A stretch of DNA of 24,000 nt from Novosphingobium sp. (GCA_031368085.1 JANLQW010000034.1:2784-26783); one strand, 5' to 3'; positions 10,598-19,338 are shown, numbered from the stretch's first letter. Made by a program: numbers and translations. The notes: generated from the letters alone by a model not told the origin.

Positions 10598-11772
10598 TGG
10601 CAGGCGGCCCGGCCTTCGCCGCCCAGCAGGCCGAACTCGCGCGACTGTCAGCGGGTGCGCGGCGGCGCACGCTGATCCAACGCCGGGGGGCTGATTTCAG
10701 CTCGAACGACTTCCTCGGCCTCGCCGGTTCGCCCGAACTTGCTGATGCAGTGCGGGCTGCCTTGGCGCGCGGGGTGCCGGTCGGCTCGGGCGGATCGCGG
10801 CTGCTGCGCGGCAATCATCCCGAACACGAAGCCCTTGAAGCCGAGGCAGCCGCCTTTTTCCACTGCGAGCGGGCGCTGTTTTTCTCCAGCGGGTTCGCCG
10901 CCAATTCGGCGCTGTTTTCCACCTTGCCCCAGCGCGGCGATCTCATCGTCTATGATGCGTTGATCCATGCCAGCGCGCATGAAGGCATGCGGATCGGCCG
11001 GGCGGAGGCGGTCGCTGTGGCACACAACGATGCCGGCGCCTTCGAGAGCGCGATCCGGGTCTGGCGCCATAGCGGCGGTACGGGCAAGGTCTGGCTCGCG
11101 GCGGAGAGCCTCTATTCGATGGACGGCGACCGCGCGCCGCTTGATGCGCTGGCGCAAGTGGCGGATCGCCACGATGCCGTGCTGCTGATCGACGAGGCGC
11201 ATGCCACCGGGGTGCTCGGACCCGGCGGACGGGGGCTGGCCGCCCATCTCGACGGACGGGACAATGTCATCAGCCTGCGAACCTGCGGCAAGGCTTTGGG
11301 CTGCGAAGGGGCGCTGGTCTGCGCACCGGCGGTGGTGGCGGATTTCCTAGTCAATCGCGGCCGCGGCTTCATTTTCTCGACTGCTCCATCGCCGCTGATG
11401 GCGGCGGCGGTGCGCGCGTCGCTTGGCGTGATTCGCGACCAGCCGGAGCGGCACGAGGCGCTGTGGCAATTGGTGCGGACGGCTGAGCGGGTGCTGGGGC
11501 CGTGCGGCGCCAGTGTCAGCGGATCGCAGATCCTGCCGGTGATCATTGGTGAGGATGCCGCGACCATGGCGATGGCCTCGGCGTTGCAGGGTGCGGGTTT
11601 TGTCGTGCGCGGTATCCGTCCGCCGACCGTGCCGGCAGGAACATCGCGGTTGCGGGTGGCGATCACGCTCAACGTTAATGAGGCGGATATCGAAGCGTTG
11701 GGCGAAGCTCTGCGGCTCGTGCAGCAGGGCAGTCCTGACGCCCATCCGCAACCGGCGCTCAATCCCGGCTGA
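10597..11772 (+). CDS. bioF: 8-amino-7-oxononanoate synthase
   Basis: The ATG at 10597 overlaps the bioB stop (TAATG). Motifs: FSSNDFLGL, GSGGSRLLRGN, LIDEAHATG, and the PLP-lysine context TCGKALG. The ORF-track start at 10441 lies inside bioB. Confidence 0.9.
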   Translation: MAGGPAFAAQQAELARLSAGARRRTLIQRRGADFSSNDFLGLAGSPELADAVRAALARGVPVGSGGSRLLRGNHPEHEALEAEAAAFFHCERALFFSSGFAANSALFSTLPQRGDLIVYDALIHASAHEGMRIGRAEAVAVAHNDAGAFESAIRVWRHSGGTGKVWLAAESLYSMDGDRAPLDALAQVADRHDAVLLIDEAHATGVLGPGGRGLAAHLDGRDNVISLRTCGKALGCEGALVCAPAVVADFLVNRGRGFIFSTAPSPLMAAAVRASLGVIRDQPERHEALWQLVRTAERVLGPCGASVSGSQILPVIIGEDAATMAMASALQGAGFVVRGIRPPTVPAGTSRLRVAITLNVNEADIEALGEALRLVQQGSPDAHPQPALNPG

Positions 11773-14700
11773 CTTTCACCACCTGTTTCAGCCATGCGCT
11801 TTTTACCCCGATAGTCAGTCCGATCTCCTCGGCGAGATGGATCTTGAGGCTGGCCGCCTGGTTCTTGTCGATGGCGATCCGGTATTCGCCGGGATGCAGC
11901 TGTTCGAAATAGAAGGATCCGTCTCCCTCTGTCCGGGCCCGCGCGACGGTCTTGCCCTGCGCGTCGACAAGCACCAGCACCAAGCCAGAGACTTCGCGGC
12001 CGAGCCCGGCGCCCTCGGTGAAAAACGCTGTTCCTTCGATATCGCTCAATTCCTGGATTGCGAAATCGGTGGCGTGGACGCGGCCGGCGCGGGGGATGAC
12101 CTCGATGCCTTCGGAGACCGGCGCCAGCGCGATGTCGGGGAGGGTTTCCAGGTCGATAGTCATGCTCGATCGGCTGCCGTCGCCAAGCGCGCCGATGAAG
12201 GCCAACCCGCTCGCATCGGTTTTCCCGTGCCGCGAACTGGTGATGAATTCCACGTCCGGGACGACAGCCTCGCCGCTATCGAAGCGCCGGTTGCCGTTGA
12301 TATCGCGAAACGCGCGCACCGCGACCGCACCCCCCGAGGTCAGCCCCGGCTCGGCGAAGAACAGCCGGCCCGATAGCGGGTTGCGGCCGAAACTGAAGCC
12401 GAGCCGCAGCGCCGCGTTGTAGCTTCCATCAGGCACGCCGTAGTTTCCGTCGAACGCGAGGGTGAACTGGCCGAAACGCCGCACTGCCGACAGGCCGAAG
12501 CGCGTCTGCGAATCCTCCAGCGTATGGCCTACCGAAGCCCGCACCAGCGTGCGCTCGTCCAGCGCATAATCGGCTTGCAGCATGCCGCCGCGCAAGCTCG
12601 GCTGCGGCAGAATCGCATAATCGGCCGAGGCGCGCAGTTGCAGGCGCGAGCCGCGCAAGGTCGCCAGATCGAAGCTGCCGATCAGCTGCGAGTGAGCGCC
12701 GAATCCGGGGGCCGAATTGCTGGCGTAATTGAGGGTGTTCGAGAACAACAGGCCTCCGACCGGCAGCGATCCGCGCAACGCGGCGTCGGTCTGCTTGCGG
12801 CCGTCGGCAAATTCGATCCGGCGGAACTGCCCATAAAGCGGAAACAACAGCGGACGCTTGTCGCCGCCGAGGTCGAGCGTCGTATTGATGTTGAACTCGG
12901 TCGACCGCCGCAGCACATCGCCGGTGAAGGATTGCAGTTCGTCGGTGAAGCGTCCGCGGTATTCGGCATGGGTCAGCGCATAGCTCAGCCCGAACAATTT
13001 GCCACCGACGCCGAATTCCACCGCCTTGCCGCCGCCGCTCTGCAATCCGAGATCGAGCTTCAGGGCGGTGCCAGCCAGCCCGGTTCGCAGCCCTGCGGTC
13101 GCCATCCAGCGCTTGCCGAAGCGGCCATCGAACCAAGCGCCGCCGAGTGCTGCGGTCAACTGGCGGGTCAGCCCGTATTCGACCAGCGCACTGCTGCGCC
13201 ATGCGCCATATTCGAACGGCGGGGTGAAACCCGGGCCGTTGACATCCAGCAGATTGGTGTCTTTTTGAGCGACTCCGAAGGAATAGACGAGCTGTCCCGG
13301 ACTTAGCCTGCCGTCACCGACACTGATGCTGCGCACGTCCTCGCGGCGCTGCCCTTGCGGGCCGTAGAACACCATGCGGAAGACGTTGAGCCCGTAATCG
13401 ACTGCTACCTTGCGGAACTGGTATTGCCCGTTGACCGGCTGCCGGGTCGATCCGATCAGGATGTTGTTGCGGTAGAGTTCGACTTCATAGCCGTCCGGCA
13501 GATCGCCGTAGAGGTCGATCATGTCGAACACCGAGGCGTGTTCGAGCGGGGCGTTGGTGACGAATGCGCCCCGGCCGCTGGTGCCCCGCAGGCCGATCGG
13601 CAGGGCGAGGGTGGTGACATCGCCGAGCTGAAATTCCGTGGCCTTTAGCGGACCGAGCAGCCCGGCATCGGGATCGCGGCGGCCGAGTTCCACCCGCGCG
13701 CCGGTCAGCCCGTCGCGCGTGGTGCCGCCGGCAAACAGCCGCGCCGTCATGAAGGCGAGGTCGCCGGCGAGGCGCAGGTCGCCCTCGATGCGGCTGCCAT
13801 AGGTCTGGTCAGTGACCGCTCGCAGTTCGGTATCGGCCAGCGGGAACGACAGCGCCTGCCACGGCGTCGGCTCGCGCGGCCAGCGGGGCTGCTCGCGCTT
13901 GCGGCCGATTGTGCCGAGTTGCTTGCGCTGCTGCTCTCGGGTGATGCGCTGCTCGAAGGGGAAGGGCACGCGGGTCTTCACTGTCACCGCCTGCGCGCGC
14001 AGATCGACGGTGAGCGTCAGCGGAAACAGATCGGCAAAGCGCTCCGCCCGCAGATAGAGTTCGCCCTCGAATGCCGCGGCGTCGCCCTTGGCCAGCGGCA
14101 GTTCGCGGCCACCAGTCGTTAGTATGCCCGAGCGGAGATTGAGCGACACGGTCTGGCTTTCGTCGATAAACCAGCCGCTGGCGTAGTGGCCCTCATCACT
14201 CACCGAAATCGCCAGGTCGAGGAAGCGCGTGACCGCGCTGAATGGCAGATAAACGCCTGAACGCGTGCCATAGGCGACGATGGTATCGGCAATCTCGCCG
14301 CGCTCGGACTGGAGCTGAAGGACCAGTTCGTCATCAGAGGTGAAATTCGGCGCAGCCTCGCCGCCGATGCGGGGCGAGGTGTCGGCATAGCCCGTCCGCG
14401 CCTGCGGCGTGCCGGCCTGGGACCGCGTTGCCAGCCCGGAACCAGTCAGCGGCGAACGAGCTGCCGAGGACGTCGCCGCGGCTGCCAGGGCGGGCGATTG
14501 ATCACGCCCAGTTGACTGGGCCGCCGCGCCGAACTGGGGCTGTGGCAGCGCCGTGGCGTCTTCCGGCACCGCGTAGGCAAGCGTAGTTCGTCTCGGCGGG
14601 CCGGGCGACCCCAGCGCGCTTTGGCCGAATGCGGGTTGCGGCAATCCGGCGGCCTGATCGGGGCCGCTGGCGACCGGGATTTCGATCTGGTCCGGCGCAA

Positions 14701-18760: not shown

Positions 18761-19338
18761 CCGCCCTCGACCGACACGAGAGTGGCGATCACGGGCAGCG
18801 CGATTGTCAGGTTCGCTCCGCCGCTGCTGCGGGTTACATCGAGGCGTGCACCGACCCGAAAAGACTTGGCGCAGATGCGCGTCGTGCAGTTGGCGATGGT
18901 ATAGGTGACGATCCGGCCCGGCACGAGCAGAGCTGCACCGGGCAGATCGGAATCGAATGCCGACAGGCGCCCGCTCACCCCCGTCTGCGTGACCGCCGGC
19001 ACACTGCTGAGCACCATCTGGAACGTTACTCTGATTGCTTTGGGGTTTTGGTTCCCGCGATCATACGCAACGGTGAATTGCGAGGGACCGACCGGCGCGG
19101 AGGCAACCGGGAAGATCGCATCGTTAACCACCGCGCCGCTGGCGCTGACCGTGCGCGAGCCGCTCGACGGCACAACAAAGGCGCCAAAGCGCAGGGCTGC
19201 GTCGGCTGTTACGGTAAGGGTGGGAACTGCAGCCGGCGCGGGCGAGGTCGGCAGCAGCGAGCTCAGGATCAGAAGCAGAACTCCATGCCGCAGTGGGCGC
19301 CGCAATGTTTCCGGTACTGGCGCCGTCCGCCCGATCAC
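18757..19338 (-). CDS. Secreted fibre subunit paralogue 1 (most divergent, Cys-loop containing)
   Basis: GTG start with GAGGAA 8 nt upstream. Signal-like RRPLRHGVLLLILSSLLPTSPAPA/AV. Motifs: LRFGAF, SQFTVAYDRG, FRVGARLDV. It lacks the Y-x-G-x-Y..TV C-terminal motif of the other subunits. Confidence 0.6.
   Translation of the reverse strand: MIGRTAPVPETLRRPLRHGVLLLILSSLLPTSPAPAAVPTLTVTADAALRFGAFVVPSSGSRTVSASGAVVNDAIFPVASAPVGPSQFTVAYDRGNQNPKAIRVTFQMVLSSVPAVTQTGVSGRLSAFDSDLPGAALLVPGRIVTYTIANCTTRICAKSFRVGARLDVTRSSGGANLTIALPVIATLVSVEGG

Follow-up and report, generated by a model that had tools for sequence, protein, structure and literature searches.

A divergent chaperone-usher-like gene cluster with DUF4402 subunits in Novosphingobium

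The described chaperone-usher (CU) systems closest to the locus presented here are the classical Fim/Pap systems, the Caf1 system of Yersinia pestis and the archaic (sigma) systems, such as Csu of Acinetobacter and CupE of Pseudomonas. FGL chaperones are marked by a long loop that joins the final two strands of domain 1. Archaic CU systems have been reported in Alphaproteobacteria and have a wide environmental distribution (PMC4654587). Non-classical chaperones have an invariant proline and a 'super-conserved' arginine, and in archaic and alternative CU chaperones the carboxylate anchor is formed by an arginine in strand F of domain 1 together with a tyrosine and an arginine of domain 2 (PMC4654587). 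We analysed a 24,000-nucleotide stretch of Novosphingobium sp. DNA (the window), in which six clustered genes quite probably specify a highly divergent, complete CU pathway whose product is a thin surface fibre of DUF4402-family subunits.

All six genes lie on the minus strand between positions 11759 and 19338, and each proved to be a real open reading frame at the coordinates that an earlier note on this DNA had given. Four small proteins, here called S1 to S4, are encoded at 18757-19338 (193 aa), 18197-18760 (187 aa), 17468-17953 (161 aa) and 16870-17550 (226 aa); if S4 starts instead at the ATG at 17400, it comprises 176 aa (16870-17400) and its gene does not overlap the preceding one. They are followed by genes for a putative chaperone (330 aa; 15799-16791) and a putative usher (1347 aa; 11759-15802). 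The note had counted three translationally coupled junctions; the 4-nt overlaps TTGA at 18757-18760 (S2 start and S1 stop) and GTGA at 15799-15802 (chaperone and usher) are real, but only these two junctions overlap, the remaining intergenic gaps being 243, 67 and 78 nt. Within the 243-nt gap before S3, about 40 nt past the S2 stop, lies a minus-strand inverted repeat (18124-18157) with 13-nt arms, 85% complementary and spaced by 8 nt.

The small proteins all belong to DUF4402 (PF14352), a Pfam family without an assigned function, for which the genomic context proposes a role as CU fibre subunits. All four exceeded the gathering score of the Pfam HMM (25.2 bits): S1 with 39.1 bits (E 1.4e-9), S2 with 55.0 bits (E 1.7e-14), S3 with 70.6 bits (E 2.7e-19) and S4 with 89.8 bits (E 2.9e-25). 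The resemblance to DUF4402 that the note had suggested is thereby confirmed, at E-values of 1e-9 to 3e-25, and the domain was present in 61/61 subunit orthologues scanned. As the note had observed, the subunits have an N-terminal x-FG strand motif in common, which is conserved across orthologues, and three of them carry a C-terminal G-x-Y-x-G-x-Y strand; this last motif (G-x-Y-x-G-x-Y..TV.Y), likewise conserved across orthologues, is found in S2, S3 and S4 and is missing from S1. The invariant glycine at position -14 and near-invariant penultimate tyrosine (-2) of S2-S4 reproduce the spacing of the FimA family, and the subunit proteins end directly after an F-strand-like motif.

A second difference between S1 and its paralogues is seen at the N-terminus, where S2, S3 and S4 carry a G-x-A-x-A-x-V-V-x-P segment that is absent from S1; it was found in 49/57 S2, 102/112 S3 and 56/78 S4 orthologues, as against 1/51 for S1. 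S1 lacks both this segment and the C-terminal Gly/Tyr feature, which suggests a tip subunit that would be the first to be assembled; its C..R.C pair is conserved. S2, with two conserved cysteines and a C-terminal ending of the form ..V.VTY., is proposed as a minor or adaptor subunit, and S4 as a second structural or minor subunit. Conservation is highest for the S3 type, of which relatives often have duplicates, and S3 is likely the major fibre subunit.

These sequence features suggest that the subunits may have an incomplete Ig fold and be linked through donor-strand exchange, as does a comparison with Caf1. Alignment of an S3/S4-type profile with Caf1 by hhalign was colinear from the mature N-terminus to the C-terminus, although marginal (127 columns, 27% identity, E 0.0053, probability only 6.9%); its score was reached by 0/300 shuffles. 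The alignment pairs G25, A27, A29, V31 and P34 with T7, A9, A11, L13 and P16 of Caf1, residues which lie in the Caf1 donor strand. No significant match of DUF4402 profiles was obtained to the FimA family, CsuA/B, SCPU or PDB sequences. Pfam Fimbrial (PF00419) matched none of the subunits and SCPU (PF05229) none of 61 DUF4402 proteins at E<=10, while hhalign aligned the signal peptide alone with 11 E. coli pilins and only 16 C-terminal residues with CsuA/B (E 0.11).

Directly 3' of the S3 gene is a predicted minus-strand RNA hairpin (17419-17459) without a U-run, with a minimum free energy of -33.9 kcal/mol (z -3.8 versus shuffles). In related loci, structures of <= -28 kcal/mol occur within 70 nt downstream of 77% of S3-type genes, compared with ~10% for S2- and S4-type genes. 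We propose that the hairpin is a transcript stabiliser or attenuator that raises output of the major subunit; its conservation after the S3 gene is consistent with higher S3 output.

The 330-aa protein (15799-16791, minus strand) begins with a signal peptide and a Pro-rich linker, and its folded part starts at about residue 65. The AF2 model (pLDDT 83.8) consists of two beta-sandwich lobes, and nearly all Foldseek matches in the PDB were pilus chaperones (YadV, CfaA, Caf1M, CsuC, FimC and PapD; E 1e-10 to 1e-7, best 9e-11, probability 1.0), in keeping with the two-lobed PapD-like periplasmic protein that had been suggested. By query TM-score CsuC came first (0.40-0.43), and the matches also included Ig-like proteins that are unrelated, WxLIP among them. 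Neither Pfam (PapD_N/PapD_C) nor NCBIfam matched this protein at E<=1, PDB sequences were unmatched even with a profile, and a profile built from close homologues alone was not significant against classical chaperones. A broadened profile aligned with FimC, YadV, YehC and SfmC (E 2.4e-4), placing the invariant R78 opposite FimC Arg8. A further bridge is provided by Polaromonas WP_011486147.1, 33% identical to the window chaperone (E 8e-40), which scores above the gathering threshold of PapD_N and bears the annotation 'fimbria/pilus periplasmic chaperone'. Between the predicted strands 169-179 and 211-220 the model has a low-confidence loop of ~30 residues. Near-invariant R172, in the first of these strands, aligns with R109 of the EcpB precursor (presumably mature Arg89, if the signal peptide is taken to be 20 aa), an alignment that is not significant (E 0.22), and in domain 2 R250, R254, Y280 and R286 are invariant.

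The last ~860 residues of the 1347-aa protein had been described as usher-like, and structure prediction agrees. An AF2 model of the last 848 residues (pLDDT 91.4) matched FimD and PapC in Foldseek over 750-870 aligned columns (E 3e-27 to 1e-16), with unrelated folds following at E>=4e-10; the barrel itself matched PapC/FimD translocation pores at E 1e-13 to 5e-15. A profile of the protein aligned with FimD/HtrE/SfmD in hhalign (85% probability, E 6.6e-6, 420 columns). Of its parts, all on the minus strand, the most N-terminal is an extension outside the model. Next comes a predicted periplasmic N-domain (13901-14304; core residues 1-135 in AF2), a confident mixed beta/alpha structure followed by a long helix, inside the FimD-aligned span. 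It leads into a predicted beta-barrel of ~24 strands (12353-13840), assigned by DSSP, Foldseek and hhalign, into which a plug-like beta-domain (~13316-13540) is inserted; by DSSP of the AF2 model the order is six strands, the small beta-domain, 18 strands and then two sandwiches. The segment VELYRNN...GQYQF, singled out earlier as plug-like, sits where this small domain interrupts the predicted barrel, and is nearly invariant, the best-conserved part of the protein. The two predicted C-terminal periplasmic beta-sandwich domains (11765-12331; AF2 strands 659-847), the last of them prealbumin-like, align with the FimD C-terminal domains in hhalign, and sub-threshold matches to SdrD_B and CarboxypepD_reg fall at residues 1268-1317. 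At the level of primary sequence the low similarity to Fim/Pap/Csu components that the note had remarked on holds: searches of Pfam, NCBIfam and PDB sequences with the 330-aa and 1347-aa proteins returned neither chaperones nor ushers, and Pfam Usher, PapC_N and PapC_C did not match the window usher. One distant relative matches Pfam Usher weakly (E 0.003).

The N-terminal extension (14305-15802, minus strand; ~490-499 aa) has a signal-peptide-like start and is a Pro/Ala-rich low-complexity region with four LPQP[AQ]FG motifs, at residues 166, 309, 387 and 419. The N-terminal 30 aa and this LPxPxFG-type motif are conserved in homologues, the motif being present in 79/92 long homologues versus 0.006 expected from shuffles; the extension is missing in most distant relatives. 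SPOR modules are found in usher relatives.

The genes of the three components are inherited together as a cluster. Of the 69 related Sphingomonadales loci in which the chaperone gene is present, 65 have four to seven DUF4402 genes directly followed by those for chaperone and usher; S1-S2-S3-S4 is the predominant subunit order, with the S1 gene first and the S4 gene always adjoining that of the chaperone. Relatives in Beta- and Gammaproteobacteria, with 23-34% usher identity, retain all three components as well, in some cases on plasmids, and the ushers of these distant lineages are adjoined by DUF4402 genes and a homologous chaperone (E 1e-48 to 1e-65). One relative, from Neptunomonas, is an orphan usher, annotated 'usher FimD/PapC', with no subunit genes nearby. 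RefSeq names usher relatives 'carboxypeptidase-like regulatory domain-containing protein', and the literature searched yielded no paper on this system and none naming DUF4402 or PF14352; the description of the system as uncharacterised therefore stands. Together these data indicate that the cluster is a real, uncharacterised and widespread, divergent branch of a known mechanism.

In the pathway that we envisage, all six proteins would be exported by Sec, and the PapD-like chaperone would capture each DUF4402 subunit in the periplasm, probably holding its conserved C-terminal strand (Gly -14, aromatic -2) and donating a strand to the incomplete Ig-like fold. Chaperone-subunit complexes would then dock onto the periplasmic domains of the 24-strand usher. 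S1 would enter first and end at the tip, because it has no N-terminal donor segment; S2, S3 and S4, with their Caf1-like segment, would join singly by donor-strand exchange and exit via the unplugged barrel, S3 making up the bulk of the fibre. The likely product would be a thin, flexible, Caf1-like polymer serving in adhesion, biofilm formation or as a surface coat.

Other readings of the cluster were weighed against this one. Were the machinery derived from a CU system but devoted to secretion without a fibre, the usher-like pore would export DUF4402 monomers or a non-polymeric surface layer, and the chaperone would be a folding or holding factor only. The failure of DUF4402 to match any pilin family significantly fits such a view, as do usher additions that are atypical of pilus ushers (the Pro-rich arm here, SPOR modules in relatives); we nevertheless regard it as unlikely, since ordered paralogues of which three carry an N-terminal segment and one does not are the pattern expected for ordered polymerisation, and the colinear Caf1 alignment takes in the donor strand. 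To our knowledge, moreover, all characterised CU systems assemble polymers. In another reading the fold matches mislead: the 1347-aa protein would be some other kind of outer-membrane barrel, LptD-like for instance or a porin carrying Ig-like domains, the 330-aa protein would be one of the generic Ig-like proteins of the periplasm, and no assembly machine would exist. This reading could draw on the LptD, porin and TonB-dependent receptor matches of the barrel (E 4e-7 and weaker) and on the WxLIP-type matches of the chaperone model. It is already disfavoured and seems to us extremely improbable: the usher matches are stronger by ~20 orders of magnitude and take in every domain, the plug and the C-terminal ones among them, independent sequence evidence concurs (the usher and chaperone hhalign results and the Polaromonas PapD_N bridge), and strict linkage of the three components extends to distant lineages.

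We think it very doubtful that the cluster falls into a CU class already named and explained, whether archaic/sigma (Csu/CupE-type) or classical FGL (Caf1-type). Such an assignment would accord with the report of archaic systems in Alphaproteobacteria (PMC4654587), with the leading TM-score of CsuC, with the weak resemblance of the subunits to Caf1, and with invariant P76 and R172 at the non-classical proline and arginine positions (PMC4654587), where the EcpB alignment is, as stated, not significant. Yet the Pfam families to which subunits, chaperones and ushers of the named classes belong (SCPU, Fimbrial, PapD_N, PapD_C and Usher) were unmatched by the window proteins, the CsuA/B alignment is confined to its 16 residues, DUF4402 was met in no paper of the literature searched, and RefSeq does not name the ushers as ushers.

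Compared with the classical Fim/Pap systems (FimC/PapD, FimD/PapC), the cluster follows the same three-part logic with clustered genes. The usher model resembles FimD/PapC in its N-domain, ~24-strand barrel with inserted plug and two C-terminal domains, the chaperone resembles FimC/PapD in its two Ig-like lobes and in the arginine aligned to FimC Arg8, and the subunits recall the FimA family in their C-terminal glycine (-14) and penultimate tyrosine. In contrast to the classical systems, none of Pfam Fimbrial, PapD_N, PapD_C, Usher or PapC_N/C is matched, the subunits are DUF4402 proteins whose genes all lie upstream of the chaperone gene, the two-domain lectin adhesin is absent from the cluster, and the usher has a disordered N-terminal arm of ~490 aa and a prealbumin-like last domain (SdrD_B/CarboxypepD_reg-like). 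With the archaic Csu and CupE systems it shares a wide environmental range and the presence of multiple small subunits that are paralogues; the chaperone has CsuC among its best matches in structure, and by eye archaic subunits share with the DUF4402 subunits the x-FG motif and a C-terminal G.Y..T..VTV.[YF]. Unlike archaic subunits, the 61 DUF4402 proteins have no SCPU match, and the gene for a two-domain tip adhesin that follows the usher gene in Csu has no counterpart in the DUF4402 cluster. The best subunit-level resemblance, although marginal, is to the Caf1 system (Caf1M, Caf1A, Caf1), which belongs to different taxa and different sequence families and whose fibres consist of one subunit type rather than four ordered paralogue groups. 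It extends to the Caf1 donor strand TATATLVEP, comparable to G.A.A.VV.P of S2-S4, and to a C-terminal strand that is AGKYTDAVTVTVSNQ-like. In the chaperone, the predicted ~30-residue loop joining the final two strands of domain 1, modelled with low confidence, may correspond to the long loop of FGL chaperones; the small, Thr/Ala/Gly-rich subunits are likewise Caf1-like, suggesting a thin flexible polymer (PMC10628683).

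Six consecutive open reading frames were found on the minus strand exactly where the earlier note had placed them. Four encode small proteins, S1 (18757-19338, 193 aa), S2 (18197-18760, 187 aa), S3 (17468-17953, 161 aa) and S4 (16870-17550 as mechanically called, 226 aa), and these are followed by the genes for a 330-aa PapD-like protein, here called the chaperone (15799-16791), and for a 1347-aa protein, here called the usher (11759-15802). Beginning S4 at the ATG at 17400 instead gives a product of 176 aa whose signal peptide is normal and whose gene does not overlap S3. The S1/S2 and chaperone/usher junctions overlap by 4 nt and the other gaps measure 243, 67 and 78 nt, so that the proposal of three coupled junctions was a slight overstatement. 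A 13-bp inverted repeat (18124-18157) lies about 40 nt past the S2 stop codon, within the 243-nt gap preceding S3, and the six genes may therefore form more than one transcription unit; a simple promoter and terminator scan found nothing useful.

On one side of this block of subunit, chaperone and usher genes are the biotin genes bioB (9587-10597) and a bioF-like aminotransferase gene that ends at 11772, convergent with the block; on the other side an SNase-like gene, encoding a secreted nuclease (19535-19951, minus strand), is directly upstream, with gyrB (20037-22637) beyond. The G+C content was unremarkable, and near-identical DNA and protein matches came from Novosphingobium metagenome-assembled genomes. 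Elsewhere in the window, a gene resembling type III polyketide synthases, with chalcone/stilbene synthase domains, lies near methyltransferase, acyl-CoA dehydrogenase and phosphotransferase genes; together (6170-7501, plus strand; 8591-9355 and 3910-6170, minus strand) they could make up a small locus for a secondary metabolite or lipid, bearing no relation to the fibre cluster.

The four small proteins had been likened to DUF4402 (PF14352), and all four scored above the Pfam threshold for that family (S1, E 1.4e-9; S2, 1.7e-14; S3, 2.7e-19; S4, 2.9e-25), with no other match and with 23-29% mutual identity. Proteins of the S2, S3 and S4 types carry, after the signal peptide and some 18-20 residues ahead of the x-FG motif, a G-x-A-x-A-x-[VI]-[VI]-x-P segment (49/57, 102/112 and 56/78, respectively), which was present in a single one of 51 S1-type proteins. 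The S3- and S4-type proteins end in G-x-Y-x-G-x-Y-x-x-T-V-x-[YF]-x, of which S2 retains a reduced form (..V.VTY.); an invariant glycine stands 14 residues from the end and the penultimate tyrosine is near-invariant. G169 and Y181 (of 182) of E. coli FimA-family pilins occupy the same two positions, which make up the classical chaperone-recognition motif. In S3- and S4-type proteins the chain stops directly behind this C-terminal strand, as would be expected if the final strand were missing. S1 lacks both the N-terminal segment and the C-terminal motif; if it cannot donate a strand, the distal tip is the only possible place for it, and we infer from these sequence features that S1 is the tip subunit.

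The DUF4402 subunits were not significantly similar to the FimA family, to CsuA/B or SCPU, or to any sequence in the PDB. Membership of the Fimbrial or SCPU families was rejected because hhalign comparison with classical pilins and with CsuA/B gave no real signal, and a PDB profile search with the subunit, chaperone and usher alignments produced nothing relevant, only matches to SdrD-like domains and chance matches to avidin. Comparison of the DUF4402 profile with Yersinia Caf1 (hhalign) gave a colinear alignment that begins at the mature N-terminus and runs through to the final residue, spanning 127 columns at 27% identity, with E 0.0053 and a probability of only 7%; none of 300 shuffled Caf1 sequences reached its score. 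The Caf1 query was a 100% match to PDB 1Z9S. This marginal alignment pairs G25, A27, A29, V31 and P34 of S3 with T7, A9, A11, L13 and P16 of Caf1, presumably the residues that enter the pockets. In Caf1 the N-terminal strand serves as the donor and occupies five pockets in the subunit that follows (PMC10628683).

A stable hairpin follows the S3 stop codon (17419-17459; -33.9 kcal/mol, z -3.8), and comparable hairpins were found downstream of 77% of S3-type genes versus about 10% of S2- and S4-type genes; its retention fits S3 as an abundantly produced major subunit. Several Novosphingobium genomes have seven subunit genes rather than four, ordered S1, S2, S3, S3, S4, S3, S4 (loci L003, L004, L006-L011, L013, L016, L017 and L031, within the upstream 8 kb), and such tandem S3/S4 duplications may supply alternative major subunits.

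By sequence the chaperone matched nothing in Pfam, NCBIfam or the PDB, even with a 48-sequence profile. An AlphaFold2 model built from the 48-sequence alignment (pLDDT 83.8, and above 90 across most of residues 65-330) shows two beta-sandwich lobes, and its comparison with the PDB by Foldseek bore out the expected PapD-like character: the top 50 matches listed were almost exclusively pilus chaperones, among them YadV, CfaA, Caf1M, CsuC, FimC, CupB2, EcpB, PapD, SafB and DraB (E 9e-11 to 9e-8, probability 1.0, target TM-scores 0.5-0.6). A protein of a Polaromonas sp. JS666 plasmid, WP_011486147.1, is 33% identical to the chaperone across its full folded length (E 8e-40), scores 25.3 bits against PapD_N (gathering score 23) and is annotated as a fimbria/pilus periplasmic chaperone; two further members of the chaperone family also passed PapD_N. 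A profile made from close homologues alone was not significant against classical chaperones; when broadened with four distant members, it aligned with FimC/YadV/YehC/SfmC at E 2.4e-4 (probability 44%) and paired the invariant R78 with the classical subunit-anchoring Arg8. The hhalign comparison with EcpB was not significant. A near-invariant R172 and an invariant P76 stand at positions recalling the hallmarks described for archaic and alternative chaperones (PMC4654587), as suggested by alignments that were not significant. Behind the signal peptide, at about residues 45-60, lies a proline-rich linker (PKPLPAPPFIPPEPP) resembling a motif of the usher arm; the family consensus does not preserve it, so the resemblance may be an effect of composition.

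When the full 1347 residues of the usher were searched, only five matches were returned, the low-complexity arm (residues 1-499) dominating; the search was therefore redone with the core, the last 848 residues. At least 1,595 representatives of 50%-identity clusters matched this core with E<=1e-30, and most of these relatives are about 900 aa long. The model of the core (88-sequence alignment, pLDDT 91.4) comprises a mixed N-terminal domain, a long helix, six long strands, a small beta-domain, eighteen long strands and two beta-sandwiches, and the small beta-domain holds the nearly invariant motifs G-Y-E-V-E-L-Y-R-N...G-Q-Y-x-F and Y-G-P-Q-G-Q-R-x-E. The protein is thus predicted to have the plan of an usher, with a 24-strand barrel, a plug after strand 6, an N-terminal domain and two C-terminal domains; in PapC and FimD the plug is likewise inserted after barrel strand 6. 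The likeness to an usher that had been read from the sequence was upheld by Foldseek, in which FimD and PapC chains made up the first 18 matches (E 2.7e-27 to 1.9e-13, with as many as 868 columns aligned), ahead of LptD, porins and others at E 4e-7 and weaker. The usher family profile aligned with FimD/HtrE/SfmD (hhalign, 85% probability, E 6.6e-6) over 420 columns covering the latter half of the barrel together with the C-terminal domains; the comparison with EcpC was not significant. In Pfam, the usher of the window had only sub-threshold SdrD_B and CarboxypepD_reg matches, both in its last domain, which explain the RefSeq names of its relatives. One distant relative had a weak match to Usher, and one source annotates a Neptunomonas relative as 'Outer membrane usher protein FimD/PapC'.

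The usher arm (14305-15802, minus strand) begins with a conserved, signal-peptide-like stretch and is otherwise disordered and rich in proline (16%) and alanine (20%). It contains four copies of LPQP[AQ]FG. Among 92 long homologues, 79 have the looser motif [LMIV]P.P.F[GS] in the arm (a median of 2 copies and at most 5), against a background of 0.006 per sequence in shuffled arms and 0.01 in core regions. The arm is missing from most distant usher relatives. A Kiloniellaceae relative of 1359 aa (P0294) is named 'SPOR domain-containing protein', SPOR being a peptidoglycan-binding domain, and on a Pseudoalteromonas xiamenensis replicon (L093) two SPOR-domain genes (2368-2853 and 7670-8308) flank the DUF4402-chaperone-usher block. 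In other lineages SPOR modules, fused to the usher or encoded beside it, thus occur in place of the arm and may be a recurring link of this family to the cell wall. Together with the conserved arm motifs, they suggest that in the DUF4402-linked family the usher may be coupled either to the wall or to some partner in the periplasm. Envelope coupling through accessory periplasmic modules would, to our knowledge, be without precedent among the ushers of the Fim, Pap, Csu and Caf systems.

A scan for related loci, taking one genome per species, gave 331 relatives, of which the best 80 were analysed. By label, nearly all of these 80 were Novosphingobium, Erythrobacter, Porphyrobacter, Qipengyuania, Altererythrobacter, Pontixanthobacter or unclassified Sphingomonadales/Alphaproteobacteria, and a single MAG contig, labelled 'Phycisphaerales', was neither Sphingomonadales nor unclassified. 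In 69 of the 80 loci the chaperone gene was identified; 65 of the 69 had one to seven DUF4402 genes directly upstream of chaperone and usher on the same strand, and the other four had almost no upstream sequence. By best-hit assignment the predominant order was S1-S2-S3-S4, with S3/S4 duplicated in several Novosphingobium (up to seven subunit genes). SNase, gyrB, bioF and bioB were not conserved as neighbours in the 80 loci, and the block is therefore a self-contained module.

Ushers at only 23-34% identity keep the same partner genes. Metagenomic contigs with distant ushers carry one to four DUF4402-type genes, a 275-298-aa protein homologous to the chaperone of the window (E 1e-48 to 1e-65) and the usher; one subunit neighbour had no Pfam record, yet matched the subunit profile. 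Distant blocks lie beside TrbI/VirB11/TraG-type conjugation genes (L085, 1-3428; an SNase gene is also near this block) and serine recombinase genes (L086, 8436-10163), and on the conjugative plasmid 2 of Polaromonas JS666 two IS6 transposases flank the block (L092, 819-1535 and 7706-8422). The usher relative of Neptunomonas qingdaonensis (L081, 8001-10838) is an orphan: neither DUF4402 genes nor a chaperone gene occur in the 8 kb around it, and a GGDEF-domain protein is encoded upstream of it on the other strand.

The block thus links a chaperone gene and an usher gene to those of DUF4402 proteins, and we consider it quite probable that it encodes a chaperone-usher-type (CU) assembly system. 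After Sec export, the subunits would be captured by the chaperone and the complexes delivered to the usher; S1 would enter first, donor-strand exchange would then add S2, S3 and S4, and the extruded product would be a thin, Caf1-like fibre composed mostly of S3, possibly with an adhesive or biofilm role. No window protein matched PapD_N, PapD_C, Usher, Fimbrial or SCPU in Pfam; the system is remotely homologous to the CU pathway, yet lies outside the Pfam families of the named classes. A search for literature on DUF4402/PF14352 or on CU systems in Novosphingobium or Alphaproteobacteria, in a library that covers a minority of subscription-journal papers, found nothing relevant. We propose only tentatively, and consider it rather doubtful, that these loci form a fourth, so far unclassified CU clade with DUF4402 pilins, widespread among environmental members of the Alpha-, Beta- and Gammaproteobacteria as well as on mobile elements; in it, accessory periplasmic modules would couple usher to envelope (a disordered arm of 300-600 aa with repeated LPxPxFG docking motifs in Sphingomonadales; SPOR, fused or adjacent, elsewhere).

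The system is genuine and widespread and had gone unannotated, though its mechanism is of a kind to be expected. DUF4402 gains a testable function, that of a fibre subunit, and a systematic mis-annotation is corrected, ushers having been labelled 'carboxypeptidase regulatory-like' or 'SdrD B-like' and most chaperones 'hypothetical'. The usher family is large, and if its reading as a CU family holds, the known range of CU assembly would be considerably wider in environmental genera, among them Novosphingobium, Erythrobacter, Polaromonas and Pseudoalteromonas, whose adhesion and biofilm organelles are poorly known. The arm motifs and recurring SPOR modules may mark a so far unstudied link between usher and cell wall, and very distant sequences are now to hand with which to find out what is universal in donor-strand assembly. 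Among known systems, FimD and PapC are nearest to the window usher by fold, the subunits resemble Caf1 by a marginal alignment, and R78 of the chaperone corresponds to the arginine of the classical CU chaperones.
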